64,000 bases of DNA, from assembly GCA_965230765.1 (NCBI GenBank), contig CBDDLR010000001.1, positions 2,696,515 to 2,760,514 of the forward strand. Reading direction: 5' to 3'. Of this stretch, positions 1,914 through 63,004 are shown piece after piece; position 1 is the first letter of the stretch, and each line of letters opens with the position of its first letter. A program made the translations under genes and the position numbers. Origin of the DNA: Sunxiuqinia sp. Lineage in GTDB: Bacteria > Bacteroidota > Bacteroidia > Bacteroidales > Prolixibacteraceae. Below the pieces are notes generated by a model. The model searched no databases, was not told the DNA's origin, and was given only the letters and a program-made list of their open reading frames with translations.

Positions 1914-1985
1914 ATTTTATTATAAAATCATTTTTTAATTAAACCTCGAAAGATACTATTTTCAATCCTGTATCTCGCTGTGGGT

Positions 1986-2050
1986 TGGCAAAAATTGCAC
2001 TCTTGGGTAAATTTTGGTTTGTGCATCGGCTCGTGAAACTTGCTAGTGTA
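1986..2050. repeat. Defence-associated 9-25-9 repeat, copy a (degenerate), upstream of hsdR
   Basis: TGGCAAAAATTGCACTCTTGGGTAAATTTTGGTTTGTGCATCGGCTCGTGAAACTTGCTAGTGT aligns with copies at 36489, 41622, 61424. Confidence 0.6.
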
Positions 2051-2215
2051 TGCCTTGTACGTAAAACAATCAGTTTTTTACATAGGGGCATTCTTGTTTT
2101 AGTTTGGACAAGTTAATAAAATACCACTTAAGTGCAAAGGGGTATGTGCTAAGCGAAAAGTTTATCTATAACCCGAACCCCGCAACTAGTATCACTTCTT
2201 TTTCATCACTTTTTA

Positions 2216-2223
2216 TATCTTTG
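2216..2223 (+). promoter_or_regulatory. Bacteroidota sigma-A -7 element of recG
   Basis: TATCTTTG matches TAnnTTTG, 4 nt before the recG ATG. Confidence 0.55.
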
Positions 2224-2227
2224 TTTT

Positions 2228-4327: not shown

Positions 4328-4359
4328 CTTTGTTACCAATAACCTAAAACCAACTTAAC

Positions 4360-5265
4360 ATGAAAAAGTTAACTTTTCTCTTATTATTTTCTATTGTGCT
4401 TAGCACATCTGTTTTTGCTAAGAAGTACAGACTTTTTTATTTGGGAGGTCAGTCGAATATGGACGGTTATGGCTATGTAAAAGAACTACCTGATTCGTTG
4501 AAAGCAGGATTTGAAAATGTCATGATTTTCCATGTTCAGATAACCAATGATGGAGAAGAGGTTAATGACAAAGGAATCTGGGCAAAATTAAAACCAGGTC
4601 ATGGTGTTGACTTTAAGTGTGATGGCTCGAAAAATATTTACGGTAAGCGATTTGGGCTTGAATTGAGTTTTGCAGATCGTATACAAAAGCTATTTCCCGG
4701 CGAAGCAATTGCTCTGGTAAAATATTCAAGAGGTGGTAGCTCAATTGATCTGAATGCATATAATTACGGAACATGGGATCCAGATTATTCCAAAAAGAAC
4801 GGTGTAAATCAGTATGATCATTTTCTGGCTACGATTAATGCAGCATTCAGCGTAGGGGATATTGATGGTGATGGGGAAGAAGATGAGCTAATTCCAACCG
4901 GGATATTGTGGATGCAGGGCGAGAGTGATGCAACCAAATATGAAACTTCAATGAAATACGGGTATAACCTGAAGCGATTAATGGATTTAATACGTGCCAG
5001 CCTGCGAAAAGATGATTTACCACTGGTAATCGGTCGGATTTCGGATAGCCAGAGTCACCATGCAGATAGCTTGATTTGGGAATATGGGAATGTTGTTCGT
5101 GCAGCTCAGCATAGTTTTGTTGAAAATGACCCGGCTGCTGCTATTGTTACTTCAACCGATAATTATGGCTATTCGGACAAATGGCACTACGATTCCGCAG
5201 GGTATATTGATCTGGGATTTCAGTTTGCTGAAAAAATGGCAAAGCTCGTCAATAAGAAAGAGTAA
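4360..5265 (+). CDS. Sialate O-acetylesterase (SASA / CE6-like SGNH esterase), secreted
   Basis: Signal peptide; GGQSNMDG, WMQGESDA, D-x-x-H (DKWHY). Confidence 0.8.
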   Translation: MKKLTFLLLFSIVLSTSVFAKKYRLFYLGGQSNMDGYGYVKELPDSLKAGFENVMIFHVQITNDGEEVNDKGIWAKLKPGHGVDFKCDGSKNIYGKRFGLELSFADRIQKLFPGEAIALVKYSRGGSSIDLNAYNYGTWDPDYSKKNGVNQYDHFLATINAAFSVGDIDGDGEEDELIPTGILWMQGESDATKYETSMKYGYNLKRLMDLIRASLRKDDLPLVIGRISDSQSHHADSLIWEYGNVVRAAQHSFVENDPAAAIVTSTDNYGYSDKWHYDSAGYIDLGFQFAEKMAKLVNKKE

Positions 5266-5314
5266 GAAACTGAATGTCTTACTCGGAGTGAGACCCTCAA
5301 TTTTTGCATCAATA

Positions 5315-6058
5315 TTATTCTACTTTCACCAAAAGTGTCCCACCCAGGTTTTCATTGCCGGTGTGCTCAATGATTATCCAAGCCTGCTTCTTCAATTGCC
5401 TGCGGAGCATATGGTTTAAATAGCCGTGTGCAACCAGCAAAACCTTCCCATTTTCTGAGGCTTTTTTCTCAAGGAATTGAGCTGCAGATATTGCCCGTCG
5501 ATGGGCCATGGCGCGGTTCTCTGTGGTTGATTTGGGTTTCGATCCCATCATCCAGAAAACCCGGTTTAAACCACTCCAAATTGGCTTTGGAAGATAGAGT
5601 AAGGGAATGTTTACAGTTCCTGGTTTTGTTTCATTAAAGATCGGATTTGCCTGGTAAACAAAACCGTCTCCAAGCAAGTTGCGGGCAGTTGTTTTTGCAC
5701 GATGGAGCTTACTGGTGAAAACCGTGTCAATTCCTTCTGCATTCAATACAAACTTTTGTGTAACCGGGTAAACATTGTTCGTGTCGTAATCCGATTTGTA
5801 CTTTTCAAGCTTCTTGTAGTTGTAAAAGAATTTCTTTTCAATATCAACCTTTTGGTGCCTGACCAGCATGATTTGCTTTATCTGGCCAGTGTTGCTTAAA
5901 TAAGGTGCAGAATCATTTAAAAAATGAAGTTGAAAATGATTTCCCGTTTTGATATTGCTTTCTTGCTGATAAACCTTAATCAGAAAGTCCTTCAGCTCAG
6001 CGGGTTGAGCTAAACAAATAACCGGACAAAAGAGTATGGCGATAAGCAGCTGTTTCAA
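5315..6058 (-). CDS. Secreted histidine-phosphatase superfamily protein
   Basis: Signal peptide; LVRHQ, TSKLHRAKTTA, FNE, LLVAHGYLN resemble the phosphoglycerate-mutase-like fold. Confidence 0.65.
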   Translation of the reverse strand: MKQLLIAILFCPVICLAQPAELKDFLIKVYQQESNIKTGNHFQLHFLNDSAPYLSNTGQIKQIMLVRHQKVDIEKKFFYNYKKLEKYKSDYDTNNVYPVTQKFVLNAEGIDTVFTSKLHRAKTTARNLLGDGFVYQANPIFNETKPGTVNIPLLYLPKPIWSGLNRVFWMMGSKPKSTTENRAMAHRRAISAAQFLEKKASENGKVLLVAHGYLNHMLRRQLKKQAWIIIEHTGNENLGGTLLVKVE

Positions 6059-9000
6059 AATAAGAAATTAAAATTAAGCGTGATTAAATCTTCTTCTTTT
6101 GAATGCTCATATTGCAGCGAAAGGTTCGTGAAGTAAAATGGTGCAAACCAAATACCGCCACCATAACCCTGGTGCCAGCTGTCAGAATCGTCGCCATCGA
6201 ACCAAACGCGGCCAACATCGTGAAATGCCAAAAGCCCTAAGCTACCATTGAAAATATAGGAGCGAACACTGGTTACCCGAAGCCTTAGGTCGGTATTTTG
6301 ATATACTGACGATTCTCCTGCAAACCGGGATGCCCGGTATCCGCGTAAGTTTGTTTTTTGTCCCAGTCGGGCAGCTTCAAATAATGGAAAATCACCAAAG
6401 TTTTTCTGGCCGCCAGCTTGCAATGCCAGCACCATCCTCGGATCTTTTCTGAAACTGAGGTAGGTAGCAATATGTCCTTTTATTTGAGTGAAGTCTTCAA
6501 AATCATTTACACCAAAAAAATGACCTGCTTCTGCACTTATGGTATAGCCCCGTGTTGGGTAGAGTTTATTGTCCAGTTTTTTGTAATCAAGCGATGCGTT
6601 TGCTGAAACATATTGGCGTCGGTCAAACAAGTCGCCGGGTACAGCTGGAGTAGGATTGTTTTGGATCGTCTCAAACAATTTATGATCCTTGGTTTCTTCC
6701 AGGTCTGTATGTAAAAAACGGACACCTGTTTTTAGCAATGCTTCTTTGTTGTGTATCCATGCAATGGATGGATTAATATCAAGAACCTTGTAGCGAATCC
6801 TGTAGTCTTTTTTATCCTCCAACAGGTTCTCGGTGTTGTTCCCATACCCAAAAAAGTTGTCGGTGGTAAATGGCATGCTGATATTTACATCCATGAACAG
6901 ATCAAAATTTCGCCAAAACGAAGTGGTGAACATTTTATAGTTTGCCTGGAAAGCACCAGTTAAAAACGATGTTTTTCCGGTAAACTGGTGCATGGTTGAA
7001 TCACGGAAATGATACCTGCTGTTCAAAAAACCACCACCCAGCAATACACCATCATCAACATTGTAGCCAAAAGCTACAAGAGGCATCGTGGTGTTGTATT
7101 TAAAAAGCTTGCGGTTGTATGCGTAAACATCTTTACTTTCCCTTAAACGAAGCGCAGTTTCTTTCCCCCTGGTGATTTCACTTTTTCCAAAGCGATCATA
7201 AATCAGTGTTTTCTTGCCACCGCTTTTTACGTTGGAATTATCCACATATTTATCTTTTCCTTTACCACCAACCAAGCGTAATTTGAGTCCTTTATTTGCG
7301 TTTCCTTCAAGCTTGAATTGGTCACCGTCGCCAAGGCCATAAAGCCTTATTTCACCTGTCTCGTTATTCACAAACGTTCTTCCATATAAATGATTTTTTA
7401 CCTTTTCCTTTTTTGGCGACCAGCTGAATACATCGATTCTGGTTGAGTCGTTAAATCGCTTAATTTGAAATAGGTCTTCATCTTCTGTGCCGACAATATC
7501 AACTCCATTATTCAGGAATAAGTGGTAATCATTTGCAAAATCAACCAGGTGTGCACGGCGGCTTTTCAATACATCCTTTATTCTGCCACCAGACAATTCA
7601 TTAATTTCCTTCGGAAGAGATGTGTTTACTGTATTATCAATTACATCATCCGTTAATCGTTCTTGAAGGTCTTTAGCAACCGATATCCAGTCTTCTTTAG
7701 TCAGTTCATTCAGAAATGTCCTGTCAAAATAACGGCCATTAAAATTAAAGCCTTCTATGTTTTTTGTGGCAGGTTCAAAGCCTTGAAACTTAGGCTGGAC
7801 CCAGCTCAGTTCAACAATTTTATAAATAGCACCATCCGAGTTGAAGAAAGCATTGTCACGGTCTCTCGGTATTGGCCGATAAATGGTTTTGCCGTCTTTT
7901 TTAAAGCTTGCCCATCGCCACTGGTCGTCGTGCCTGTCCCAATCGGCAATCCACATGTCAAAAAGCCTGTTCCGAAGTACAAATTTTTGATCGATCACTG
8001 CTTCATCATCCTCCACAATAGCTTCTAAAACATCGGGCGTAGAAACAACCTTTTTCGAAAAACCGAAGCTGGCTACATCGTCCCTGTTTTTTGCAGGGCG
8101 TTCTTCAAACAAAAACAGTTTGTTTTTCATTTCCTGCCTGTAAATTCCCAGCGCTGGGTCATCGGGGACGTAAAATATTTTTGGGTTGGTATGGTAAATT
8201 CTGGCAGCCTCGGCCAGTTCAGGAACAACAATTGCCCCGTAAGGGTGGGAAGCAGAAATCCCGTCCTGGATAATATCTACTGCAAACGTTCCACGCAATG
8301 CTGCAGGTAAGGCACCTTCCGCATTTTTATCAACCGAGCGAAGAACGTATTGCTTTTTGTTATCATTTTGAAGTCGGTACGATTGGGTTTGTTGCCCACC
8401 TCCGCGCTTTAAAATTTTAAGCCCACCTTTTTCTTTTTCAATATCAAAAACAGGGAAGGTACTTTCGGTTGCCCATACCTGGCGATAATTATCGCCCATG
8501 AGGAAGCGGGTAAACTTACCTTTTAGGTATTGCTCACTTATATCAGTATGAACAATGCTGTCGCTGTAATTTTCTTCGTTATCTTTTTCTGCCAGAAAGT
8601 GGGAAGGCTTCAGGTTTATTGTTTTATTGTATGCCGAACTCAAATGGTTGTTTTCAAGCGAGAAATAATCTACCTCAACAATATTGCCCTCATTTAATTT
8701 TAACCGGGTAAATCCGGGGAGAGCAACATCGACCTTGTTATTTTTAAAAGGTTTAGCAACAGCTCCAGCAATAACCTGGTTGGACATGCCCATCTGGTTT
8801 AGCTGAAAGTTTTTTTCATGCCCGGATACGTACAGTACATTTTTATATACCGAAAGCATGTTTTTTAGTCCATAAGACATCTCTTTGTACTGTGGATGGT
8901 TGATATCCTGCACGCCACCTAGCATTTTTCTTGGTGTGTAGTAAAGAAACCCGGGAAGTGGCAGGTAAAAACCAGAGTTGCCAGCTAGTGGAAAGAAATT

Positions 9001-29483: not shown

Positions 29484-29559
29484 AGTTTAACTTTTTAGTT
29501 TATTAATAGTATCTTTCCTATATTATATCATAGTTCCCAAAAATCTTTCTTACCTAATT

Positions 29560-31048: not shown

Positions 31049-31083
31049 TCTGTTTATTATTTGGCAGTGTCGTTTTTACACTT

Positions 31084-31212
31084 GAAGGGTTTGTACATGT
31101 TGTCGGGGCGGATTTTCAATAGAAATCCAGTCAGACCCGCAGGGGAGTAGCCGGAAGGTTTGACTTGTCAAACCGATAAATGCCCCGCCTGCCATATTGC
31201 AATTTGTTACAG
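31084..31212 (-). repeat. attC-like site 2 (family A) with deleted core
   Basis: GAAGG|GTTTGTAC, expected GAAGGTAACGGTTTGTAC; other end G(31206)TTACAGT. Confidence 0.7.
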
Positions 31213-31227
31213 TGCGTTTTTTCATTT

Positions 31228-32073
31228 TTAGTTAGCGTATACTACATTTATCCCATGCCTTTTACTCAAGCTTGCTTGGTCTCCATTACTGCTAAACAAA
31301 TAAATATTCAAATCATATTTATTGAAATGTTCTTTTGATAATTCAAAAATTGTACGAAAGCTGATGTCCATGGAATAGAGAAAAGATAAACTATGCTTGT
31401 CTGGCTCCCAGTGCCTGTCAATTGTTTTCCCTGTTTCATCCACATTTAAATTGAATGGGGGATTTGAGACGATAGTATCCTTTAGTCCAATTGCTTTTAA
31501 TTTTTCGAAAAACTCATTAGCAAACTCCGTTTTTTCTTCTCCATTAAAAATTACACTACCGTATAATAAATCTGTTGGTGTAGGAAATACGTCTTTAATT
31601 GAACATGAAAAATATTGGTTTTCTGGAATCTCCAATGAAACTTTATTTTCACTAATCAAGAAATTTGATTGAATCGAAAAATCAAAAGTTCTAACCGTAA
31701 AAGTATAATCTCCCGATTTAAGAGAATTCTCAGGTATAAAAAAATCTCCGTCTGAAATGCATAGATTATCTGTTTTATTTGGACTTGGAAATACAGGACA
31801 TTTTCCTTCGTCAATTTTGTCAATTAAATAAATATCGATACTTCTCTGTTTATTATCAATTTTGTATTCAAAGATTAATTCATAGAAATTCTCAAAACGT
31901 TGGGCTTCATAAAACTCAAATACAAATCCTCTTCCTTCTTCTCCAAAGATTTTATGATTCCACCACAAATTTAGTCCTTCAGAGCTTAAAAGTGAGTTTC
32001 TATCAAATTCATCTTTCTGACAACCAAATATCAAAACTCCAATTAGGATTAAGCAAATCAATTTTTCGTTCAT
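31228..32073 (-). CDS. Hypothetical lipoprotein (cassette)
   Basis: MNEKLICLILIGVLIFGC lipobox; probable start 32073. Confidence 0.65.
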   Translation of the reverse strand: MNEKLICLILIGVLIFGCQKDEFDRNSLLSSEGLNLWWNHKIFGEEGRGFVFEFYEAQRFENFYELIFEYKIDNKQRSIDIYLIDKIDEGKCPVFPSPNKTDNLCISDGDFFIPENSLKSGDYTFTVRTFDFSIQSNFLISENKVSLEIPENQYFSCSIKDVFPTPTDLLYGSVIFNGEEKTEFANEFFEKLKAIGLKDTIVSNPPFNLNVDETGKTIDRHWEPDKHSLSFLYSMDISFRTIFELSKEHFNKYDLNIYLFSSNGDQASLSKRHGINVVYAN

Positions 32074-33092: not shown

Positions 33093-33224
33093 CTATAACG
33101 GTAAATTGTATGAGTAGTGGCAGATTGCGTGACACTTTCCTGTCAAACCGCTACGTAGTTTGAGCGGGCTACAAACCATGATATTTAGCACCTTACCTGC
33201 CATTACTTATACAAAATGTTGCCA
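33093..33224 (-). repeat. attC-like site 4 (family B)
   Basis: GGCTATAAC(33099)...G(33218)TTGCCAAC. Confidence 0.8.
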
Positions 33225-34126
33225 ACAGTTAATTCATTTATTCCACCGCTAATTTTTACAACTCGTTCAATCGGAATTTCATTATTTTCAAGAATAATTG
33301 TTCCTTTTATAGCATAAATCCCTTGATCTAAATTGGTGATCACCTTACTTTCCTGCATTTGTTTAAGTTCAAAGGAGTTGTTGTTAATAGTAAATTTTCC
33401 TGCCTTTATGTTTTTATAGTTGAAAGTTATTTGAAGAATTCCTTTTTCGGAAGAAACTTTATTTTCAGCCTCCTCCTCTTTTTTTGCCTTTTCTTCTTCT
33501 TTCTTTTTAGTTTCCAACTTGATGCGTTCCTGAGCAAGATTTTGTCTTGCACTTGTCAATTCTGAATCAACTTTGTTTGTTAATGCAGTGATCTGATTGC
33601 GAAGATTAGTACTCCAATTACTCGTTTCATCAATTATTATAGTTCTTAAAGATTTATCTAAATTGAGAATAGTATCAATTTGCAGTTTCATTAAATCTTC
33701 ATTTGTTCCATCTAATTGATTAATTGAAATAAATTGCGCTTGATATTCAGATATGACTTTTTCAATTTCAAATTGCGCTTGAATATACCTCATCCACCCT
33801 TCGGATAGTCCAAATTGACGATCAATTAGCAATAGTAGACTTGCAAGTACTAATGACCCAACATTCATTGTCAAGATCCTATACTCCTCTTTGTCTGGTG
33901 TGAAATTAATTGTAAGGGCTAAAATCAATGCTAATGCAAAGAGTGCTACAGACCCTATCCTCAAAGTGATTGACCAAATTCTTTTCCATATAACATGATC
34001 AAAGTAAAACTTATGCATTTCATCTGCATAAGCTAAAACACGGTTCAAATAATCGGCTGTGAGTTCATTTGAGATTTCTCCCCACTTCCGATCTACAGCA
34101 ATGCTCTTCCATTCTTTTTTTTTCAT
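33203..34126 (-). CDS. SLATT-domain 2TM effector (SLATT_2-like) with coiled coil and C-terminal beta domain
   Basis: KRIWSITLR-TM-TM-DRQFGLSEGWMRY; ORF reads through the attC box (...VGNILYK*). Confidence 0.7.
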   Translation of the reverse strand: MKKKEWKSIAVDRKWGEISNELTADYLNRVLAYADEMHKFYFDHVIWKRIWSITLRIGSVALFALALILALTINFTPDKEEYRILTMNVGSLVLASLLLLIDRQFGLSEGWMRYIQAQFEIEKVISEYQAQFISINQLDGTNEDLMKLQIDTILNLDKSLRTIIIDETSNWSTNLRNQITALTNKVDSELTSARQNLAQERIKLETKKKEEEKAKKEEEAENKVSSEKGILQITFNYKNIKAGKFTINNNSFELKQMQESKVITNLDQGIYAIKGTIILENNEIPIERVVKISGGINELTVGNILYK

Positions 34127-34150
34127 ATCTATTCGAATTGTTGCAAACAG

Positions 34151-35194
34151 TTATTTCAAAAGAATTGGAATACCTACATAGAAATTTATCGAAAAAATAT
34201 CATCAATGTCTTTTTTTCCTGTTGAGTCATTAAAATCAATGAAGGCGAACTGGAGAGAAGAAATAATATTTGATGAAGACCATTTAGGATGAATGGATGG
34301 TCCTATTGAGAAGTTCCAAGACATCACATCTTCATTGAAATTATATTTTGTTGATAACGATCCAAGAAGTCCAATTCTTGGTCCAATTTCATTCCCATTA
34401 CTATCTTTCTGTAAAAATGGTGTCCATGCGAAATCTAATTTAGGAAGTATAGAAAAATAATCATCCTGAAATTTTGGATATGCTTTCTCAGTTTTTTGAA
34501 TCATACCATTGCTTACTGTTGAATCAATGATAACGAAATCCTTTGTTTTCATATCCGATATAGGGTTAATACTATACTGAATTGCCATTGACAAAGCAAT
34601 TATTAAGTTATCAGAATTATTATTAGTTGAAAGAACCCAGTTAAAACCAGGAGTAATATTAAAGATATGAGATACTTTTTTCTCAATTGTAATTGAGTCA
34701 GTTGTACTTATGCTTCCGAATTTATTTTGTTGCAACCCATAACCAAGTCTAAGAAAGCTATATCTACTTTCTGTCTGAAACTCATCACGGTTATTAATCA
34801 TCTCATAAGATAGTCCTAATCCCGGATTATATTTGCCTCCGCTATAAATCGCATTGGCACCATCAGTTACAGGAACTATAAATTTAAAATTTCTCCCCTT
34901 AAAAGGATTTACATACAATGTATCCGTAATCTTAGTTTTATCTATTTTTGATTCATCAAAGTCTTTCGTAATTTCAATTTTACTGCCATCCTTCATTACA
35001 AGATAACTAATCATTTTACTATGCGTTTTACCATAAGTAAAACGAGCTTCCGACTTGGAAAAATCATATCCGATGTTCATTCCATTTTCTTGTGAAAAAA
35101 CAATTCCATTCTCTGTTTTCGCACTCTTCATGTTAACCTGAGCATAAGATAAATTCACACAAAATATGGCTATAATTGGTAATATCCTTTTCAT
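34151..35194 (-). CDS. Hypothetical secreted / outer-membrane protein
   Basis: Signal peptide, beta-strand-rich, ends FYVGIPILLK. Confidence 0.55.
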   Translation of the reverse strand: MKRILPIIAIFCVNLSYAQVNMKSAKTENGIVFSQENGMNIGYDFSKSEARFTYGKTHSKMISYLVMKDGSKIEITKDFDESKIDKTKITDTLYVNPFKGRNFKFIVPVTDGANAIYSGGKYNPGLGLSYEMINNRDEFQTESRYSFLRLGYGLQQNKFGSISTTDSITIEKKVSHIFNITPGFNWVLSTNNNSDNLIIALSMAIQYSINPISDMKTKDFVIIDSTVSNGMIQKTEKAYPKFQDDYFSILPKLDFAWTPFLQKDSNGNEIGPRIGLLGSLSTKYNFNEDVMSWNFSIGPSIHPKWSSSNIISSLQFAFIDFNDSTGKKDIDDIFSINFYVGIPILLK

Positions 35195-35197
35195 GGC

Positions 35198-35497
35198 TTA
35201 TAAGTTAAATGATGAAATTTTGAATGAACGTGTTATTCTATTTATTCCGCTCTTTTTTAGCTTACCTTTAATTTCTTTTTTAACGGAATTAAGAGTCATA
35301 GACAATTCATATTCTTGTCCTAATTGTCCTCTAATTACAATGGTTACATCTACAGAGTTATCCATATAAGTTACATTTTCCTCTGCTTTCCATTTATCAC
35401 CATGTGAGTAAATATTAAAAGATGTTGTCTCTACCATTAAACCTAGAGGTCCAGGTCTTTTTGAAATTTCAAACTTCGTTACATTTGTTGTTGGCAT
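35198..35497 (-). CDS. Hypothetical protein (99 aa)
   Basis: First gene of the three-gene cassette, 3 nt from the next ORF. Confidence 0.55.
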   Translation of the reverse strand: MPTTNVTKFEISKRPGPLGLMVETTSFNIYSHGDKWKAEENVTYMDNSVDVTIVIRGQLGQEYELSMTLNSVKKEIKGKLKKSGINRITRSFKISSFNL

Positions 35498-35552
35498 ATT
35501 TTTATGGTTTTAGTTTCGTTTAGATTTAATTATAACCTATCTGTCTAATTGT

Positions 35553-35684
35553 TGGCAACGGTCACTTGTATGTGGTCGGGCGGGCTTTCGTGCAGAAATC
35601 CAGTCAGACCCGCAGGAAAGTGGGCGAAAGGTCTGACTTGTCAAACCGATAAAAGCCCCGCCTGCCATATACAATTTGTTGTAC
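35553..35684 (-). repeat. attC-like site 5 (family A)
   Basis: GTTGGCAAC(35559)...G(35678)TTGTACAC. Confidence 0.82.
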
Positions 35685-35691
35685 ACCGTAT

Positions 35692-36252
35692 TTATTTTAG
35701 TTTTTTTCTCATCACATAATAATTATCATACTCCTTGTGCATTAGAAATTCGTTTCTTTTATATAATTCCATAGGACCTTTGAAATTATTTTCACCCGAT
35801 TTTCCTTTTCTCGGATATGCTTCAAGATAATCATAGTCTGTATTCGAATAATCCTCAATGACTTTTTCAAGAAGCTTTTGAGAAATCCCCTTTCTTCTGT
35901 AATCAGGGTGGATTAAAAAACAAACAACTGAGCAAACTTTATCATTTGGATTATCGATCAAATCAAAATCTCTTAATAATCGTTGATAATTTAATCTATT
36001 GTTTGCATTACACCATCCAATCGGTTTACCATTCTCAAAAACCAAATAACCTTGTAGCTCGTTCTCATCTATGCGATTAATTATCAATGAGCGACTCATA
36101 TCACGTGTACAAGTTTCGACATCTCCGAGGAAATGATAGTCATTACAATAACATTTTGACCATTCAGGGTTTTCTTTATGAATCATATTATCAAAAAGAG
36201 ACAAGTAATCGTCTTTTAAATCTTTGGTCAATGGTCTAATTTCAACATTCAT
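35692..36252 (-). CDS. GNAT N-acetyltransferase (cassette)
   Basis: CYC, IGWC, VVCFLIHPDYRRKGIS, EAYP, YKRNEF. Confidence 0.85.
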   Translation of the reverse strand: MNVEIRPLTKDLKDDYLSLFDNMIHKENPEWSKCYCNDYHFLGDVETCTRDMSRSLIINRIDENELQGYLVFENGKPIGWCNANNRLNYQRLLRDFDLIDNPNDKVCSVVCFLIHPDYRRKGISQKLLEKVIEDYSNTDYDYLEAYPRKGKSGENNFKGPMELYKRNEFLMHKEYDNYYVMRKKLK

Positions 36253-36271
36253 TTTTTTCGTCTTTTTTATG

Positions 36272-36403
36272 TGGTAACGGTAAATTGTATGTGGCGTAGC
36301 GGATTACGTGATTCTTTTCTGTCAAGATAGCATTGAAGTACGGGCGAGTGACAAACCTTAAAATACCCGCAAAACCCGCTATGACATATACAAAATGTTA
36401 CCT
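36272..36403 (-). repeat. attC-like site 6 (family B)
   Basis: GTGGTAAC(36278)...G(36397)TTACCTGC. Confidence 0.8.
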
Positions 36404-36488
36404 GCTGGGTTTAGTCTTTCCATTCATAGGACTTCATAATTTTCAATTTTAGCACTATCCCGATTTTGTTTTTCGGGTCGGCAAAAAA

Positions 36489-36560
36489 GCGATGGAAGAC
36501 AGGCAAGCTCTTTTGCAATTTTTGGTTTGTGCGTCTGCTTGTGCGAATTGCAAATGTGCT
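36489..36560. repeat. Defence-associated 9-25-9 repeat, copy b
   Basis: Arms TTTGCAATT (36512-20) and AATTGCAAA (36546-54), 25 nt spacer. Confidence 0.75.
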
Positions 36561-36616
36561 TGGCTGTGTGGGCTGGCTTAATTTATTAATGTGCAATATG
36601 TGCAATTATTGTGCAA

Positions 36617-37942
36617 TCAACTATTTTTAATAACGTAATAAGCTCCAGCTCCCTTTTGTCCACTACTTTCCAATAATTCTTTATTCACTAACTCAGTAAG
36701 GTCATTACTTGCAGTGTTTCTTGAGCAATCATTTATACTCTGATATTCACTATTCGTAATCTTACCTTTTTCTTTGACGTATTTCAAAGCTTCAATTTGC
36801 CTCGGGTTTAATCCAAGAGATTCAAAATACTCAACGTTGAAATTATCTTTCCTAAACTCCACCCAAAAACCCGACATGTCGTAATAATATTTGGGCTGGG
36901 GAATGCCAAACTGAATACATTCGTTAATAATTTTAATCGTTCCTCTTCCCCAGGATTCGATATACCCACTTCTAAAAAGAGCATTTGCAATGTCCGGATT
37001 GTAGGGTTTTGATGGATGTTTAGTCAACAATTTCTCAATTGTCCAGTTTTCAGGTAACTGTCCCTCATTCCAGAAAATCAACTTGTCGTTATAAACGCTG
37101 ATTTGGATTGGTACACCACCAGAATAATCTTTATGGCAAACAGCATTTAATAGTGCTTCACGAACAGCATTTTTTGGATATTCAAACTTTTCAATCCTGT
37201 TTAAGCCTTCATAGCTAATTGATGATTTGATGTATTTGGAGAAAAGTAAATCCATAGTTTTCTCAACCTGTTCAAAAATATTTCCCGTAATTTCATCCTG
37301 AAATTTCAATTCATCATCGGTCTCGAAATATCCAATTTTAATAAATGCACCAGTAATGTATTTTGTTGGTTTGGGATGAAACAATAGAATTGCAGCTCGT
37401 TTCAGGTAATCATTTTCAATCAACTGCAAATTGTCCGCCAAATCTTCGTCCGTATCTGTTAAAACATCATCTTCAATTCGCTGCGCTTTAACCGCTTTTT
37501 TTCTGAAAAAATCAAAAGTTTCATTCTTTAAATCGGCAATTGAAATATTTGGAACAGGAACACCATCCCACTTTTTTCCTTTGCGCTCCAACATAAATTT
37601 ATCGAGAGATGCTCCTTTTAATTCTTGTTTTGTGCTACCACTCCGATAATGATATTGTCCTTTGTAGTTTACTGGGTTTGGATAAGGTTCTACAATTATT
37701 TCAATAAACTGCTTTTCATTTTCGCCCAATAAATTTATGTCGCAAACAACACCTAAGTTGGTAACAATTTTATTGGGTAGGTTATCCATCAATCTTTTAG
37801 CATTGTCAATGCCAACAACTTCACCTTTGTCGTTTTTGCCGATGTAGATTTTGCCTCCTTGTGCATTTGCAAAACCGCAAATCCATTTAAGGTATTCATC
37901 GCGCCAGCTTTCTTTCCACTCTATGTTTTGACTTTCTGCCAT
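36617..37942 (-). CDS. Schlafen/AlbA_2 + HATPase_c_4 + winged-HTH protein
   Basis: ESQNIEWK, CGFANAQGGKIYIG, VREALLNAVCHKDY, NPDIANALFRSGYIESWGRG, C-terminal HTH. Confidence 0.85.
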   Translation of the reverse strand: MAESQNIEWKESWRDEYLKWICGFANAQGGKIYIGKNDKGEVVGIDNAKRLMDNLPNKIVTNLGVVCDINLLGENEKQFIEIIVEPYPNPVNYKGQYHYRSGSTKQELKGASLDKFMLERKGKKWDGVPVPNISIADLKNETFDFFRKKAVKAQRIEDDVLTDTDEDLADNLQLIENDYLKRAAILLFHPKPTKYITGAFIKIGYFETDDELKFQDEITGNIFEQVEKTMDLLFSKYIKSSISYEGLNRIEKFEYPKNAVREALLNAVCHKDYSGGVPIQISVYNDKLIFWNEGQLPENWTIEKLLTKHPSKPYNPDIANALFRSGYIESWGRGTIKIINECIQFGIPQPKYYYDMSGFWVEFRKDNFNVEYFESLGLNPRQIEALKYVKEKGKITNSEYQSINDCSRNTASNDLTELVNKELLESSGQKGAGAYYVIKNS

Positions 37943-37945
37943 TAA

Positions 37946-39406
37946 TTAACAAACATTAAAAATTTTGGCTCTTTCGTATTCCTTAATATTTGAAATCGCC
38001 TGCCTGTTTTGAATTTTCTCCATTGAGCGAGCTACTTTAGTACTTTCCTTATCGCTAAAACCAAGGAATTTGTTTATTACTTTCAATTCATTCTTGCTTT
38101 TAATATTCATCAAGAAAGCAGTTTCACACATGCTTGAAAAATCGAATGAAGGTTGATTAAACTCTTCAATACCTTGAGATAATAATACTACAGATACTCC
38201 TTTTGAACGGATTTCGCGCAAAATCTTTTCAAGTATTTCTTTTGATTTTTTGTCTTTGAAAACGTTATGAGCTTCATCTATTATTAAAACATACCTCATT
38301 CCTTTCATATCATTTTCAACAACAGAATTTTCCATATTCATGAAAGTGTTGTAAATGTAATTTATAATTAGGAATGCGGCTGTAAACCGAACATTTCGAC
38401 TCAAATCGCCGGATAAACTTAAATAATAGTTTTGATTTAAAAATGAACCATCAGAGTTCGTGTCGAACAAATTAATTTCGCTTAAACCAATTAATATTTC
38501 GGTTAGAGTGCTGGGCTTGTCTCCAGCAATCTCATAAACGTTATTGAGAATTTCTTTTAAAGTTGGGTATTTTCCACTATGATGATTGTCAAAAGCTTGT
38601 TTTGTTGCTTCTTTTAAATGTTGAACCTGAACCTTTCCCAACCCCGCATAATCCGTAATAATATCGACAAATTTATTTATGCCCAATATCTTATTGTTAG
38701 CATTGATATTATCTATAAACGACAGTGGATTAACAGGGAATGGCTTATGCGGCGTATCAATCAAATTTGCTTGTGTATTTCTAAAGAAATTTTTGAATTC
38801 ATTGCTTTCTTTTTCCGATTCGCTAATTCCTTTAAAATCGAGGAAAATGAAGTTTGTTCGGAAATTACTTGCTTCAACGATTCGTTCTAAAAGTCTTTGG
38901 GCAAAATAGGTTTTACCAGAACCGGATTGTCCAGCAACTGCTATGTGAGCATTGCTATACAAGATTGTGTCATTTGGCGTGAAGTAAATATCTTTTCCTT
39001 CATCGTCCTTGCCAACCAGTAATTTCCAAGGATTACAAGACAATGTTTTTTCGATATTTTGACTGTAATTATCAACATGTTCTAATCCGACAATGGCGTT
39101 TTCAAGCTCGGAAATACCACTATCAATACTGTCAATTAGAAAGTCGAATCCTGAATAATTTGCATTGTCCTCAAACAGTTTATTAATGTGTTCCAAGCCG
39201 TGGTCAACATGCATTTTTACGAACTTTCCAATATCTGTATTTGATTTGTGAAAACTATAATGCTGGCAAATTAATGCAATGTAGTAATCTTTGTATTTCC
39301 CAAAAAAAGTATCATCCTTGTAAGATTTCCCTTTTGAATCTTTCAGGTTTTGAGTGATGGAAAAGCTGCTCAAATGAGTATTTATATGTTGGCTGCGCAG
39401 ATTCAT
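37946..39406 (-). CDS. DndE-like domain fused to HerA/FtsK-type ATPase (N-terminus possibly truncated)
   Basis: DSKGKSYKDD...YIALICQHY...MHVDHGLE (DndE-like, from memory); AGQSGSGKT, FLDFKG, IIDEAH. Confidence 0.65.
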   Translation of the reverse strand: MNLRSQHINTHLSSFSITQNLKDSKGKSYKDDTFFGKYKDYYIALICQHYSFHKSNTDIGKFVKMHVDHGLEHINKLFEDNANYSGFDFLIDSIDSGISELENAIVGLEHVDNYSQNIEKTLSCNPWKLLVGKDDEGKDIYFTPNDTILYSNAHIAVAGQSGSGKTYFAQRLLERIVEASNFRTNFIFLDFKGISESEKESNEFKNFFRNTQANLIDTPHKPFPVNPLSFIDNINANNKILGINKFVDIITDYAGLGKVQVQHLKEATKQAFDNHHSGKYPTLKEILNNVYEIAGDKPSTLTEILIGLSEINLFDTNSDGSFLNQNYYLSLSGDLSRNVRFTAAFLIINYIYNTFMNMENSVVENDMKGMRYVLIIDEAHNVFKDKKSKEILEKILREIRSKGVSVVLLSQGIEEFNQPSFDFSSMCETAFLMNIKSKNELKVINKFLGFSDKESTKVARSMEKIQNRQAISNIKEYERAKIFNVC

Positions 39407-40368
39407 CCTTTAAAAATATTAAAGTTATGCCAACGGATATTTTCTACAGAAGGATAAAACTTTTCTTCGGCAGGCAATTGAATTTGTTTTCCTCGAAACT
39501 GAGTTAGTGAATAATCAGTTTTGTTTTCGCTAAATTTTGTTGAAATAAGTACATTAAAATTTTCATCTATTGATAATAAACCTCTGTCAAAAGCTCTGTG
39601 GAGATTGGGACAAAGTGCTAATCCATTTGATATTGTGTCGTTATTACTTTCAGAAAATGGAACAATATGACAAGCATCAATCATTGAAATATTAACTACA
39701 CTGTCAATTCTTAATTCTGAAATACAACATGTGTAATTATATATTTTAGGAATCTCGCGTTTAAAAACATTGCTCCGAATAAATATTTCTTCCTGGTATG
39801 ATTCTTCTTTTAATTCTTTTCTAAGTTCTAAAAGTCTTTTTGAATAAACTTCTGAATCTTCGTTTGCAATTTGATTTTCAATATCATTCAAATATGAATT
39901 ATGTCCGTAATTACCTTTTGTTTCATGAAAGTAAGAATCTAAAACAAATTGTTTTGCAATCTGGTTGTTTTCAGGAATAAGAAGTAATTCAAATAATTCG
40001 TTGTCAATCAATGCATATTTTACGGCTGTTGTGATATTTTGCAGACTTCTCATCGAACTTTTTGATTTTACCCAAATCTCACAACCTTTATTTGGAACAA
40101 GTTTCCAAAACGGTTCTGAATTCATATGATAATAAGGTAAAGCAAAGAGGCATTGATGGTTTGATGTTACCAAACTATTCCAGTTTGATTTGAAAAGTCC
40201 TACAAATTCAGGAGAAATGGAAATCTTATTGTTTGAGAACAGACCGTTTCTAATTCCTTGAAAAAGGCTCAATAACAAAATCGGTTTATGAGGAGCACCT
40301 CCATTTTTATAGTCTCGCCTGAGTTTCTCAAAACGGTTCAAATAATATTTTAAATTTTTATTCTTCAA
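39403..40368 (-). CDS. SBD-HNH endonuclease (putative phosphorothioate-dependent type IV restriction enzyme)
   Basis: APHKPILLL and LPYYHM (sulfur-binding-domain-like); ACHIVPF...NGLALCPNLHRAFDRG (HNH); TTG start. Confidence 0.75.
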   Translation of the reverse strand: MKNKNLKYYLNRFEKLRRDYKNGGAPHKPILLLSLFQGIRNGLFSNNKISISPEFVGLFKSNWNSLVTSNHQCLFALPYYHMNSEPFWKLVPNKGCEIWVKSKSSMRSLQNITTAVKYALIDNELFELLLIPENNQIAKQFVLDSYFHETKGNYGHNSYLNDIENQIANEDSEVYSKRLLELRKELKEESYQEEIFIRSNVFKREIPKIYNYTCCISELRIDSVVNISMIDACHIVPFSESNNDTISNGLALCPNLHRAFDRGLLSIDENFNVLISTKFSENKTDYSLTQFRGKQIQLPAEEKFYPSVENIRWHNFNIFKG

Positions 40369-40377
40369 TTTTGTTAT

Positions 40378-41577
40378 TTAAGCTGCTTTCAACATTACAT
40401 CTTCTTTATCCTGACGTTCAGTTTTATTCTTCATATCAAGTTCGATGTTAAACACTTCGTTATATATTTGGGATACTTTTTTGTCAAAAAATAAATCTCT
40501 TGTCCAAATTACCTGAATTGCAATAAGTTCTTGATTGGTAATTAATTCAACGTGAGGTTTGTCTTCTTGAATAATTTTTTGTGTTTCAAGCACTCGCTTC
40601 AAAATATTGGCTCTGTACGTTGGTTTGTACGTGCCCATTTCATTGATTGCTTTGGTGCCATCACGCCGAGTAGGCATTCTAATTTCAATATTATTTCTTT
40701 CCGATTCCAAATCATCTCGTAATTTCAACAATGGTTTAAGCCAATCAAAACCATTGTTAATTAGTGCAGCCATCGACTTATCAACTTTAACAACAGTACA
40801 AGTCCAGCAACCAAATCGGCTCTGTCCGCACGATGAATGTTCTTTATTTGTAACTAAAGTTGGACATTCATAATCGTCTGAACTTGCATCTGCATAAATT
40901 TGAAAAAGCTCAGAATTGTCAGCCCCCCAAGGAGAAGGGTGAGAATTTATGATTCCCCAAATTTCTTCAAGCATCAAATGTTTAATTGGAGAATAAACAA
41001 AAGTGTTTGCTTGTAACGAATGTTTTGTAAGCCGTTTCCCACGAATTTCGTGCTTTTTAATAGACTTAGCTCTTGAAGCACTTTCCGCAGAACGTGTCCC
41101 AATTAAAATGATTGCTTCTCCATTTTCAGCAACTTGCTCATTAATGTATCGTGATGTTGGTTTAATTTTTAATTTGTCGGTACACCAACGGAAAGCATTA
41201 TTCGGAACCGGGTAACCTTTTCCAATAATGTTTACCCAAAATGAATCTTCTAACCTTGGAATCGTTTTTCTGACAAATATTGGCAAATCATTTTCCCTTG
41301 CTGCTTTGCTAATTTTATTTAGAACTCGTTCGGTATATTCTACGATTATTGGATTTTCAACTAAAGTGTCGTTGCATACTACATAAACTGGTCTTTTGAG
41401 TTGAAAAGGATTTGGCATTTTTCTGATTTTTAAAAGTGCCTCCCAAACCAGAGTTAATAATACTGTCGAATCTTTTCCTCCACTAAAACCTATTATCCAA
41501 GGTTTTTCTGTGTCGTCAGCATAACAGTATTGGTCGATTATTTCGTTTATTATATGTTCAATTCTTTTATTTCTCAT
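40378..41577 (-). CDS. dndC: DNA phosphorothioation sulfurtransferase DndC (PAPS-reductase fold), C-terminus possibly shortened
   Basis: WIIGFSGGKDST, NDTLVENP, FRWCTDKLKIKPT, SCGQSRFGCWTCTVVKVDKSM. Confidence 0.85.
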   Translation of the reverse strand: MRNKRIEHIINEIIDQYCYADDTEKPWIIGFSGGKDSTVLLTLVWEALLKIRKMPNPFQLKRPVYVVCNDTLVENPIIVEYTERVLNKISKAARENDLPIFVRKTIPRLEDSFWVNIIGKGYPVPNNAFRWCTDKLKIKPTSRYINEQVAENGEAIILIGTRSAESASRAKSIKKHEIRGKRLTKHSLQANTFVYSPIKHLMLEEIWGIINSHPSPWGADNSELFQIYADASSDDYECPTLVTNKEHSSCGQSRFGCWTCTVVKVDKSMAALINNGFDWLKPLLKLRDDLESERNNIEIRMPTRRDGTKAINEMGTYKPTYRANILKRVLETQKIIQEDKPHVELITNQELIAIQVIWTRDLFFDKKVSQIYNEVFNIELDMKNKTERQDKEDVMLKAA

Positions 41578-41621
41578 TTATTTCATCTTGAAAACCCAAA
41601 AATAACAAATTATGCCATGGA

Positions 41622-41694
41622 GCGATGGCAAAATTGCAGCTCTTTTGCAAAGCTTTGGATTGTGTGCCGGCTTGTGCGGCTTTGCAAATGTGCT
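41622..41694. repeat. Defence-associated 9-25-9 repeat, copy c
   Basis: Arms TTTGCAAAGC (41644-53) and GCTTTGCAAA (41679-88), 25 nt spacer. Confidence 0.75.
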
Positions 41695-41839
41695 GCAATG
41701 TAGGCGGGATTTCCCAAACTGCCCCATAGGGCAGAAGCGCGTGGGCAAAACAAAATCTTCATCGAAGCTGTCAATTTTCTTTTTTTATTGGTTTAGTTAG
41801 TCTCTTATTTCTGGTTCTTTTTCTTCAATTTAACCTTGC

Positions 41840-41972
41840 AGGTAACGTTCAGTTGTATGTGGTCTGGCGGGATTTCGTGCAGAAATCCTGTCAGACCGGT
41901 AGGAGAGTAGCCGGAAGGTTTGACGTGTCAAACCGATAAGTACCCCGCCTGCCATATTACAATTTGTTATGT
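41840..41972 (-). repeat. attC-like site 7 (family A)
   Basis: GCAGGTAAC(41846)...G(41966)TTATGTGC. Confidence 0.85.
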
Positions 41973-41979
41973 GCTGTAT

Positions 41980-42405
41980 TTATTCTTTTTTTGATTCAAT
42001 TTTTATAGGAATATTGTATTCTGGTATATAGTCACATTTAATATCCGTTTTAACTATTTCTATCGGTCCAATGTTTTTGATTATTTCAGTCATGTTATTT
42101 TCAAGGAATTTAAAATTTCCTAGTTTATTCTCTAATCGTATTTCAATACTGTCTCCTTCATCTATGTTTGAGTAAAGTTTGGCAAATTTTATTCTAAAAT
42201 CTCTCAAATTTAATCTTACAGTATCACAACTAGCTGGAATTAACATTTTGCCGTAATAGTTTCCTCTAAGCGTTATTGGATTGATTTTATTTGCATTTTT
42301 TAAGTTATAGCAAGGGATTAATGGGGTTATAATCTCTTCGTTAACCTGGCAAAATGCATTTAAGTTTGAAAAAACTATTGATATTATTATAACAAATTTT
42401 ATCAT
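41980..42405 (-). CDS. Hypothetical secreted protein (cassette)
   Basis: 141 aa with signal peptide. Confidence 0.6.
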   Translation of the reverse strand: MIKFVIIISIVFSNLNAFCQVNEEIITPLIPCYNLKNANKINPITLRGNYYGKMLIPASCDTVRLNLRDFRIKFAKLYSNIDEGDSIEIRLENKLGNFKFLENNMTEIIKNIGPIEIVKTDIKCDYIPEYNIPIKIESKKE

Positions 42406-61234: not shown

Positions 61235-61254
61235 ACTTCTGTTTTTAAAATAAT

Positions 61255-61376
61255 TGCTAACGGTTGGTACATGTTGCGGAGCGGATTTCGGAGTGATTTT
61301 CCGTCCGATAGGATGGAAAATTGATGCGAGAGCCGCAGTTACAAACCGCACCACCCCCGCTCTGAAAATGTTGTGT
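61255..61376 (-). repeat. attC-like site 25 (family C, about 10 nt short)
   Basis: AATTGCTAAC(61261)...G(61370)TTGTGTGCC. Confidence 0.65.
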
Positions 61377-61423
61377 GCCCGTGCTTTGTCTTCGTAGTCA
61401 GTCTGTGCGAGGGACTAGCCATA

Positions 61424-61476
61424 CTCTTTGGCAAGTTTTGGATTGCGTGATGGCTTGTGCGACTTGCCAATGTGTA
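61424..61476. repeat. Defence-associated 9-25-9 repeat, copy d
   Basis: Arms TTGGCAAGT (61428-36) and ACTTGCCAA (61462-70), 25 nt spacer. Confidence 0.72.
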
Positions 61477-61492
61477 TGGATGTGCGGCTCGG

Positions 61493-63004
61493 CTAGAATC
61501 CATAAACACTTTTAATCAATTCATTATTTCTTTTTTCAAGTTCTGAATCGTAATCTTCTCCATTTTTTAGTTGATTCATAATTTGAGAAATATTGTCTGA
61601 TATCTGAATCCTAATATTTTCATTTGGTTTTATAAATGGAATTTTCTTAATGTAATTCGATGAATTGTTTGTTGATGGGTTAATTGTCCTAATTAAAGTA
61701 TTACAAGTTGGAGAATTAAAAAAAGCTAATAGATATTCTAATAGCTCTATTTTTTTTGGGAAAATCCCAACTATCGATTGGTCAAATAATCTTTTATCAA
61801 TTAAAGCTCCGGTAATTGAACTTGAACTAACCATTGGAACAGCAATTCCCTTTTTAAAATAAAATGAAGAGTTCTGATATCGTGCTTTTTTATCCTTTTT
61901 AAAAAAACTAACCAAATCAGATGACCAGTTCATAAACCAATTGTCAGGTTTGTAATATTTTGTATTGCCTCCTTTTACGATTGGTACAAATGCTTTTTCT
62001 GTTTGTATTCCGTTTAATAGAGTTTCATTACATTGAAAAGTAATTTTATCTTTCGGTACTACATCGTATCTTTTTGAGTTTCTAATTTTCTTGCTTATAA
62101 CTTTTAAGTATTCTTTGTCATTTCCTGAATAAAATCCAGTAACACAATCACAGATTTCGCCAATAATCATTTCTGTTTCTTTAATGCAAGAAGAAATTTG
62201 AGGATTTGAATTATTTATAAAAGCATGGTCATTATTAGAAATAACATCTTTCTGCTTTAGTTTAATTACCTCCAAATTTTCCGAGTCATTAGTTCCGAGT
62301 TCATCAACATTGTTGTAACCTTTTATAATTTTAAACTCATTGCCTGCGCAGGCTTTGTAGTCCGAGCATTTTTCTAAAGCTATAATTGAAAGATTTGCAT
62401 AACCAAAATTAACACCTGGAAAATATGAAGATGGGAAAAGGGCAATCTCTTTTAATTTTGTTTTTGAAAGTATAAACTTTCTGATATCCTTATGCATATG
62501 AAGATTTAGATATGTATCGGGAATGATAAATACCAAACGACCTCCCTCTTTTAATGATTCTATGCTTCTATAAAGGAAAAGCGAATAGCTTTCTTTTGCA
62601 TAGAAACCATTAAACCTCTTTTTTAACAGTTTTCTGTCTTCTGTGTTTCTCCACGCTCCATATGGCGGATTTGCAATTACCGCATCATATTTACCACCCA
62701 TTGAACATAGAAACTCCAATTCACTGTCGGTTAAAGTATCTGTTTGTTTAATGGAAATATTTTTAAAGTTAGAATACTTTACTGCTAAGTTTTTTATTGA
62801 GTCTTCATTTAGCTCATAAGCTTCAATGCTTACCTCTCTATGTTTATTTACTATTGGGTCAATAAAGACGCCATCTCCAGCGCAAGGTTCAAATATTGTC
62901 TCATTACCTTTAAGGTTTAAAAGGTTTACCATGTAATCTACAATGGGAGTTGATTTTGTATAGTAAGCCTGATATATTCTATTTTCACTAATCATAGCTA
63001 CCAA
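61493..63004 (-). CDS. N6-adenine DNA methyltransferase (type II R-M, gamma class)
   Basis: FEPCAGDG (motif I), IANPPYG (motif IV), FIIPDTYL, C-terminal TRD. Confidence 0.9.
   Translation of the reverse strand: MVAMISENRIYQAYYTKSTPIVDYMVNLLNLKGNETIFEPCAGDGVFIDPIVNKHREVSIEAYELNEDSIKNLAVKYSNFKNISIKQTDTLTDSELEFLCSMGGKYDAVIANPPYGAWRNTEDRKLLKKRFNGFYAKESYSLFLYRSIESLKEGGRLVFIIPDTYLNLHMHKDIRKFILSKTKLKEIALFPSSYFPGVNFGYANLSIIALEKCSDYKACAGNEFKIIKGYNNVDELGTNDSENLEVIKLKQKDVISNNDHAFINNSNPQISSCIKETEMIIGEICDCVTGFYSGNDKEYLKVISKKIRNSKRYDVVPKDKITFQCNETLLNGIQTEKAFVPIVKGGNTKYYKPDNWFMNWSSDLVSFFKKDKKARYQNSSFYFKKGIAVPMVSSSSITGALIDKRLFDQSIVGIFPKKIELLEYLLAFFNSPTCNTLIRTINPSTNNSSNYIKKIPFIKPNENIRIQISDNISQIMNQLKNGEDYDSELEKRNNELIKSVYGF

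Follow-up and report, generated by a model that had tools for sequence, protein, structure and literature searches.

Can a four-gene defense operon of a Bacteroidota genome move as a single gene cassette? In published surveys, integron defense cassettes are small and mostly hold one or two genes, a limit ascribed to cassette recombination, and Bacteroidota are listed among the clades without integrons (Darracq et al. 2025, 10.1101/2024.07.02.601686; Kieffer et al. 2025, 10.1101/2024.07.02.601719; Getz et al. 2025). The question is raised by a block within a 64,000-nt stretch of Sunxiuqinia sp. DNA, here called the window, which an initial annotation had read as a phosphorothioate (PT)-related locus packaged as one cassette. 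We conclude that the block is very probably a single, mobile gene cassette bounded by attC-type sites, with cutting and joining at G|TT as in classical integrons. Taking ends, cargo, and array together, the best explanation is probably a mobile cassette of an integron-like array with a slimmed Dnd cargo. Plain coordinates refer to the window; for sequences beyond it, G000 denotes the organism's own genome (contigs C1 and C2), G005, G006, and G017 the genomes of relatives, and L-numbers the compared loci.

An attC-type covariance model (R1), built from 12 repeats of the array and run with filters off, found 25 sites in the window, all on the minus strand between 29554 and 61392. Read on that strand, the sites open with a box ending AAC and close with GTT. 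The C of AAC and the G of GTT are 118 to 121 nt apart in 23 of the 24 sites measured and 109 nt apart in the site at 61247–61392; no GTT was found in the site at 31073–31228. In classical integrons, the G|TT crossover leaves the last bases of one site at the start of the next cassette, and the start of a cassette pairs with the first box of its own site. Model matches at 36264–36419 (102.6 bits) and 41832–41988 (166 bits) flank the block. The second is the minus-strand site of the upstream cassette, whose GTT box gives the crossover point. With the G of the two GTT boxes at positions 41846 and 36278, the unit runs on the minus strand from 41845 down to 36278 and measures 5,568 bp, the extent first annotated; box matches, model sites, and homology break points elsewhere all mark these limits. 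The cassette's own attC-type site (36278–36405, minus strand) opens with the R″ box GCAGGTAAC at 36397–36405; its C of AAC and G of GTT are 119 nt apart.

The end boxes match perfectly, as first annotated. The 9-mer GTTACCTGC occurs only twice in the window, at 36397–36405 (plus strand) and 41838–41846 (minus strand), against a mean of 0.25 matches in shuffled sequence, and each copy sits at the edge of a member of a repeat family approximately 135 nt long. The cassette start GTTACCTGC is the exact 9-nt complement of the R″ box GCAGGTAAC that opens the cassette's own 3′ site at 36405. Pairing of this kind, over 9 to 10 nt whose sequence differs from cassette to cassette, was seen by eye in the box table for 10 of 11 adjacent cassettes; the exception is the GNAT acetyltransferase cassette at 35559–36277, in which start box and R″ box fail to pair. 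Between the two flanking matches (36420–41831), the unfiltered model found no attC-type site, the best score being 14.1 bits (E = 0.73, within dndC). The original statement that the interior holds no attC-like site thus stands for attC-type sites, with the qualification that two structured repeats of another kind (41633–41699 and 36499–36567) lie inside.

The same ends recur in other genomes. In six cassettes from five genomes, likeness begins at G|TTACCTGCAAGG, behind unrelated sequence (alignment A9). The cassette head, or 5′ leader (41700–41845, minus strand), begins with TTACCTGCAAGG and matches cassettes with other cargo in related genomes at 74 to 79%. In a contig of a Paludibacter metagenome-assembled genome (L018), similarity to the window begins exactly at GTTACCTGCAAGG, behind an unrelated attC-type body, and continues at approximately 81% through dndC. 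Two inner segments then differ, and similarity resumes from the 3′ hairpin to AGGTAAC (the R″ box), after which the site bodies diverge. The cassette tail between hairpin and attC-type site (36406–36498, minus strand) is kept in L018 and in cassettes of related genomes. Four further cassettes from genomes of the same genus and the same family share an approximately 220-nt head that starts at the same base behind unrelated sequence; three of the four have a matching tail hairpin (G005, G006), and two of those three a matching terminal attC-type site, 81% and 75% over the last 290 to 313 nt. In a vent-metagenome contig, the match to the window ends at 41845. The block is therefore not confined to larger noncassette islands with different ends: L018 shares its 5′ junction and its 3′ end as far as the R″ box, and the further cassettes share its head at the crossover point. 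Break points shared at the predicted base in independent genomes indicate that the unit recombines at these ends.

The cassette belongs to a large array on contig 1, with approximately 124 attC-type sites and 123 cassettes over 164 kb, running from window position 29554 to the contig end. The median cassette measures 1,041 bp, and the Dnd cassette is second in size to one of 7,051 bp. A multigene cassette, described at the outset as unusual, is so against published surveys; in this lineage, 10 of the 123 cassettes reach at least 3 kb, and large cassettes have a build in common. The other contig carries a second array, of 17 sites, with the gene for a 379-residue Xer-like tyrosine recombinase (G000:C2 1083423–1084562; L072:3423–4562) upstream of it on the same strand. 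This recombinase is co-oriented with the cassettes and is the sole one adjoining an array. Its score on the XerA/integron-integrase model is 213.8, against a cut-off of 220. At their distal ends, and over at least 11 kb of flank, the two arrays are 98.5 to 98.9% identical in opposite orientation (G000:C2 1107504–1125000 and G000:C1 2712615–2728717). This suggests a duplication, the presence of two strain versions, or a single locus split during assembly; the same locus may thus be present in the assembly in two versions. Given a recombinase below cut-off and a possibly doubled locus, we call the system integron-like.

Several results weigh against a mobile cassette of an integron-like system. 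The recombinase reaches 202 bits on the integron-integrase model TIGR02249 (cut-off 265) and is unaligned over model positions 180 to 240, the stretch of the IntI extra domain, and no recombinase adjoins the contig-1 array, which runs to the contig end. Neither a circle joint (36278|41845) nor a deletion joint (36277|41846) was found in the assembled contigs of public runs, the only material searched for them. A search of 40 relatives did not find the exact four-gene cargo at any other array position. The nearest full copy, in Plebeiibacterium marinum (L021), has the same four-gene order with just a 21-bit attC-like match downstream and no clear attC-type site.

Two other joints were seen in these contigs. 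One connects 36409 to 41829, with one side of just 21 nt. The other comes from the organism's own run (X1), in which a single 823-nt contig joins 36273–36566 to approximately 41969 at a depth of 8.4, against 22 for the main path, with a 60-nt side; it is ambiguous. Joints such as 36409–41829 and 41969–36273 can arise from the repeated attC family. The X1 contig places the 3′ end of the cassette beside the start of an attC-type site, an arrangement absent from the assembly; variation of the array within the culture, or an artefact of the repeats, may account for it.

What the cassette carries was called correctly from the start: profile and structure matches agree with the assignment of dndC, a nuclease with a sulfur-binding domain (SBD) and an HNH domain, a DndE-ATPase, and an AlbA_2-HATPase protein. 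All four genes are on the minus strand and, with successive gaps of 9, −4, and 3 nt, form one operon. The first (40378–41577) encodes a 399-residue DndC, a sulfurtransferase of the PAPS-reductase family that scores 390.5 bits on TIGR03183 (cut-off 290.4) and 3.5e-133 on the PADLOC DndC model; a PDB sequence search with it gave no match. The second (39403–40368) encodes the 321-residue SBD-HNH nuclease, with the SBD at residues 6 to 130 (SBDHga1, PDB 8h0l, 5.9e-11) and HNH_2 at residues 214 to 268. The cavity residues of SBDHga are H25, K26, L75, P76, and H79 (PMC10602919); the motifs PHK and LPYYH of the cassette protein align with H25/K26 and L75/P76/H79, and its residues H27, P78, H81, H234, N248, and H257 are invariant in 18 homologs.

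The third gene (37946–39406), whose start overlaps the nuclease gene by 4 nt, encodes a 486-residue protein with a partial DndE domain (profile positions 46 to 105 of 111, 39.8 bits) and a P-loop ATPase of the HerA/FtsK type. Its predicted structure (mean predicted local distance difference test score 77.5) finds the DndH C-domain as the best match in a fold search (7es4, E = 4.6e-18, template modeling (TM) score on the target 0.79), followed by VirB4 and HerA, with TdpA (8wet_A) at rank 36 and a TM score of 0.36. A complex prediction of the ATPase with the SBD-HNH protein scored 0.00, which carries no weight for or against binding.

The fourth gene (36617–37942) encodes a 441-residue protein with AlbA_2, HATPase_c_4, and C-terminal helix-turn-helix (HTH) domains, and it goes with the cassette tail rather than with the Dnd set. 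It is common to unrelated defense cassettes: a copy in G017, 88% identical in DNA to that of the window, follows unrelated cargo, and a paralog with 53% amino acid identity is the last gene of a TOTE cassette. The description of the block as a four-gene PT-related locus is accordingly right in that this is a multigene, Dnd-derived operon and too broad in counting the AlbA_2 gene. In the Paludibacter cassette (L018:5504–7563), two proteins of 364 and 322 residues without a Pfam match stand in the place of AlbA_2. Their homologs directly follow the SBD-HNH or the ATPase gene in metagenome contigs (L081, L082), and this recurrence makes them candidate partners of this Dnd variant. A scan for sigma-70 promoters and terminators, with a model ill suited to Bacteroidota promoters, gave nothing above shuffles. 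The cassette has no cysteine desulfurase gene; Aminotran_5 genes (the cysteine desulfurase class) lie elsewhere in the genome, the best scoring 498.5 bits.

The operon lacks dndD, and its relatives show where that gene would be. In most of 48 related loci found with the ATPase, the spacing from DndC to the DndE-ATPase is approximately 2.4 kb. Two such gaps were examined, in loci that are among the closest relatives (L018 and L020; DndC is 79 to 92% identical in L017–L020), and each holds one 699-residue open reading frame; the one in L018 matches AAA_23 and SMC_N, which makes it an SMC-like ATPase and identifies it as DndD. In the window and in L021, the SBD-HNH gene occupies this position. 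Four other loci (L045, L049, L083, and L089) have the nuclease gene followed by an open frame corresponding to DndD residues 312 to 699, the C-terminal half, and in L075 and L080 the ATPase is missing as well. DndD is absent from the cassette and, by tblastn and the TIGR03185 profile, from the organism's own 99.9%-complete genome. In this operon, dndD has been replaced by a PT-reading nuclease.

The DndD-less arrangement has been maintained. Between the window and L021, the proportion of nonsynonymous differences (pN) is 0.09 to 0.24 across all four genes and that of synonymous differences (pS) 0.68 to 0.80; with pN far below pS on every gene, the genes are kept by selection in this state. A DndC-like gene is also present in 12 of the 33 metagenomic loci (36%) of this SBD-HNH clade that have at least 1.3 kb on both sides, whereas SBD-HNH enzymes in general lie near dnd genes in under 3.6% of cases (PMC7461809). 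A related cassette differs in the opposite direction: L162 (G017:C2:120500–131000), at 1244–8979, has the same head and 3′ hairpin and encodes a 711-residue protein, a DndD-like ATPase, a full-length DndE-ATPase, and AlbA_2, and no DndC. It may pair a DndDE core with another modifying enzyme.

We consider it probable that the cargo is a PT-based defense. Our specific proposal, a write-and-read system, is tentative and falls somewhat short of an even chance. DndC, assisted by a cysteine desulfurase of the housekeeping kind and by the DndE-motor protein, would put sulfur into the DNA backbone, and the HNH nuclease would read the PT mark through its SBD as self. The trio would thereby separate self from foreign DNA much as Tdp or Dnd systems do, and the AlbA_2 gene and the two hairpins would probably be frame parts that regulate or insulate the operon. 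Three points count against the proposal. In characterized Dnd systems, from work in S. lividans and Salmonella, DndD is needed for PT. The DndE domain of the window has a 28-residue in-frame deletion (about residues 10 to 20), and the residues lost are kept in all aligned relatives, L021 included. Characterized SBD-HNH enzymes cut PT-DNA (PMC7461809, PMC10602919), an activity at odds with an operon that also encodes a PT writer. PT can, however, be written without DndD by enzymes of the PAPS-reductase family: tdpC alone suffices, as do brxP and brxC of BREX type 4 (PMC12914056).

Some of these points also feed an alternative that we regard as unlikely: an SBD-HNH gene entered a dnd operon and disrupted dndD, PT is not made by the host, and the nuclease acts as a type IV enzyme that cuts incoming PT-DNA, with DndC and the ATPase as leftovers or as helpers in targeting or as a motor. 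This would fit the restriction of PT-DNA by characterized SBD-HNH enzymes and the intact sulfur pocket and HNH residues. The stepwise series from full DndD through its C-terminal half to none, the deletion in the DndE domain, and the variants without ATPase (L075, L080) read naturally as decay, and mutated dnd clusters have been proposed as one reason for the rarity of SBD-HNH/dnd co-occurrence (PMC7461809). Yet purifying selection is strong on dndC and the ATPase gene in the DndD-less arrangement, so they are not dead remnants. The association of dndC with this nuclease clade also extends across deep divergence, and a type IV nuclease would be expected to act by itself, its host having no corresponding PT writer, whereas dndC here lies 9 nt upstream in the same operon.

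The operon is set within a frame that recurs around other cargo. Its order is head, hairpin, dndC, SBD-HNH, DndE-ATPase, AlbA_2/GHKL/HTH gene, hairpin, tail, and attC. The two hairpins, approximately 70 nt each, sit just inside the cassette ends on the minus strand. The 5′ copy (41633–41699) has an outer stem, an A.A / C-G / A.A internal loop, an inner stem, and a conserved loop of approximately 25 nt; the 3′ copy (36499–36567) is of the same family. RNAalifold predicted no structure from an alignment of 17 copies because gaps in the outer stem were not mirrored. When the copies were then folded singly, 16 of the 17 took the same two-stem shape, with stem sequences that differ in a covarying manner and a conserved internal loop and 25-nt apical loop. 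Rfam found no family in the whole window at gathering thresholds, so the hairpins match no curated RNA. They were also considered as a second kind of attC and rejected as such, since they lack AAC/GTT ends, do not match the attC model, and do not mark the break points between genomes, which fall at the attC boxes.

Hairpin pairs bracket four cassettes in the organism's own genome: the Dnd cassette, two restriction-modification cassettes, and a TOTE cassette. One restriction-modification cassette stands at the window end, with a hairpin at 61424–61494 and its partner just beyond; along the array, the others are a 3.7-kb restriction-modification cassette and the TOTE-type cassette of 7 kb. The latter is the largest of the array (G000:C1 2768148–2775199; L065:8148–15199) and encodes a TOTE-type primase-helicase (AEP-TOTE and ResIII), an M78/ImmA-like peptidase, three small open reading frames, and, last, the AlbA_2 paralog. 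A profile search placed hairpins of this family at G000:C1 2760815–2760897, 2768323–2768384, 2774553–2774627, 2854859–2854924, and 2858140–2858215, and also matched L018, L021, L075, L028, L030, and L059. A lone copy lies outside the array, upstream of hsdR (window positions about 1981–2068).

Large cassettes of this design span 3.7 to 8 kb, and in related genomes, the head and tail surround other cargo of 4.5 to 8 kb. Those cassettes share the head, both hairpins, and, where seen, the tail, around different contents: a Metallophos/ORC-CDC6-like/Dam methylase set, a TerB_C/BrxC-D-like ATPase/helicase set, a C5-methylase/GHKL set, a DndD-like ATPase with a DndE-ATPase and no DndC, and a FecR/TonB-receptor set that is not defense. 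We read the hairpins and AlbA_2 as parts of a frame common to large cassettes, with a possible role in insulation, regulation, or cargo exchange. The multicopy cassettes of approximately 583 bp without an open reading frame were considered as empty frames; this was unsupported, as they match neither the hairpin profile nor the head or tail in the organism's own genome. Elsewhere in the array, a 2,460-bp cassette at 33099–35558 encodes a 307-residue SLATT_2 membrane effector domain protein followed by proteins of 347 and 99 residues without a Pfam match, and is possibly another defense cassette. The GNAT acetyltransferase cassette has three array copies, the others being at G000:C1 2813604–2814161 and 2834870–2835427, with 99.5 to 100% amino acid identity.

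The recurrence of this frame raises the idea that a hairpin-bracketed module moves instead of, or in addition to, the attC-bounded cassette, the hairpins being swap sites for whole operons. The conserved fold despite differing stems would suit this, as would the hairpin pairs around four cassettes of one genome and around unrelated cargo in relatives that share head and tail, and L021 keeps both hairpins without a clear attC-type site. We nevertheless find it doubtful: no recombinase travels with the hairpins, the copy upstream of hsdR stands alone outside the array, homologous recombination within the 200- to 300-nt head and tail could swap cargo equally, and the hairpins could be terminators, insulators, or operator sites. 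Similarly doubtful is a wider reading in which the locus would be a new DndD-independent PT system, its nuclease held off self DNA by the mark of DndC, the reverse of known SBD-HNH enzymes, carried in a class of frame cassettes without a canonical IntI that exchange operons at hairpins.

The frame also bears on whether the cargo is defensive at all. It could serve modification only, the HNH protein being the nickase required by DndD-type systems and PT being written for an epigenetic, redox, or antirestriction role without a restriction partner. In Ssp, SspB is a nickase, and the set of a PAPS-reductase-like enzyme, a nuclease, and an ATPase found here parallels SspD/SspB/SspC; the nuclease moreover lies exactly at the dndD position of relatives. 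However, a nickase acting before sulfur insertion needs no sulfur-reading domain, and the neighboring large cassettes with the same frame carry defense systems, which makes this reading improbable. That the block is instead a set of cassettes fused after inner attC-type sites decayed, and is now immobile, we judge very improbable: recombination does fall with cassette length, a 4-kb cassette having gone unrecovered in a capture assay (10.64898/2026.03.17.712381), and no circle joint was seen in the public-run contigs, but the match between the end boxes is still perfect, other multigene cargo lies within the same head and tail in five genomes, and the small gaps between the genes leave no room for site remnants.

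Our preferred reading thus remains a mobile cassette with a slimmed Dnd cargo. A four-gene, 5.6-kb operon here obeys every cassette sequence rule, and such arrays carry whole multigene defense loci. Because a cassette of this size follows the rules and its head and tail recur, the size limit appears looser in this lineage, possibly owing to a dedicated cassette frame. The cargo offers a compact natural test of whether a DndC-type enzyme works without DndD and of how one operon can accommodate both a PT writer and a nuclease that reads PT. The literature searched contained no paper placing a dnd-type locus in a cassette.

Like integron defense cassettes, this one lies in a co-oriented array, has folded attC-type ends with a G|TT crossover and a start complementary to its own R″ box, and holds defense cargo with its own expression signals. 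Unlike those published, it combines four genes and 5.6 kb in a member of the Bacteroidota, and unlike integrons, the sole array-side recombinase is Xer-like and below the IntI cut-off, with an extra hairpin pair inside the cassette ends. Relative to Dnd (DndABCDE with DndFGH), the cargo has a DndC above the family cut-off and a partial DndE domain joined to a HerA/FtsK ATPase, for which the DndH C-domain is the nearest fold of known structure. The DndE-HerA/FtsK fusion is known beside a DndD-related ATPase, and a nuclease is known near some dnd loci (PMC10853773), so that a nuclease in the neighborhood is a shared feature. It differs from Dnd in that DndD, DndA, DndB, and DndFGH are absent from the cassette and a sulfur-binding HNH nuclease holds the position of the DndD-like ATPase; at approximately 3.6 kb, the trio is much smaller than a dndBCDE and dndFGH locus.

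Two further families frame the functional comparison. TdpABC (An et al. 2025; PDB 8wet; as summarized in PMC12914056) likewise joins a PT writer, a HerA-like ATPase, and a partner, and there PT writing needs no DndD; compared by the ATPase only, the likeness is a distant structural match (the rank 36 noted above) without a sequence match. With the PT-dependent type IV enzymes ScoMcrA, SprMcrA, EcoWI, and Hga (SBDHga, 8h0l), the nuclease shares an SBD at the N terminus, including the H-K and L-P-x-x-H residues of the cavity, and, at the C terminus, an HNH domain whose catalytic residues are kept. Unlike those enzymes, which are rarely near dnd, members of this clade adjoin dndC at roughly one in three informative loci, and in the cassette the nuclease is built into the operon itself.

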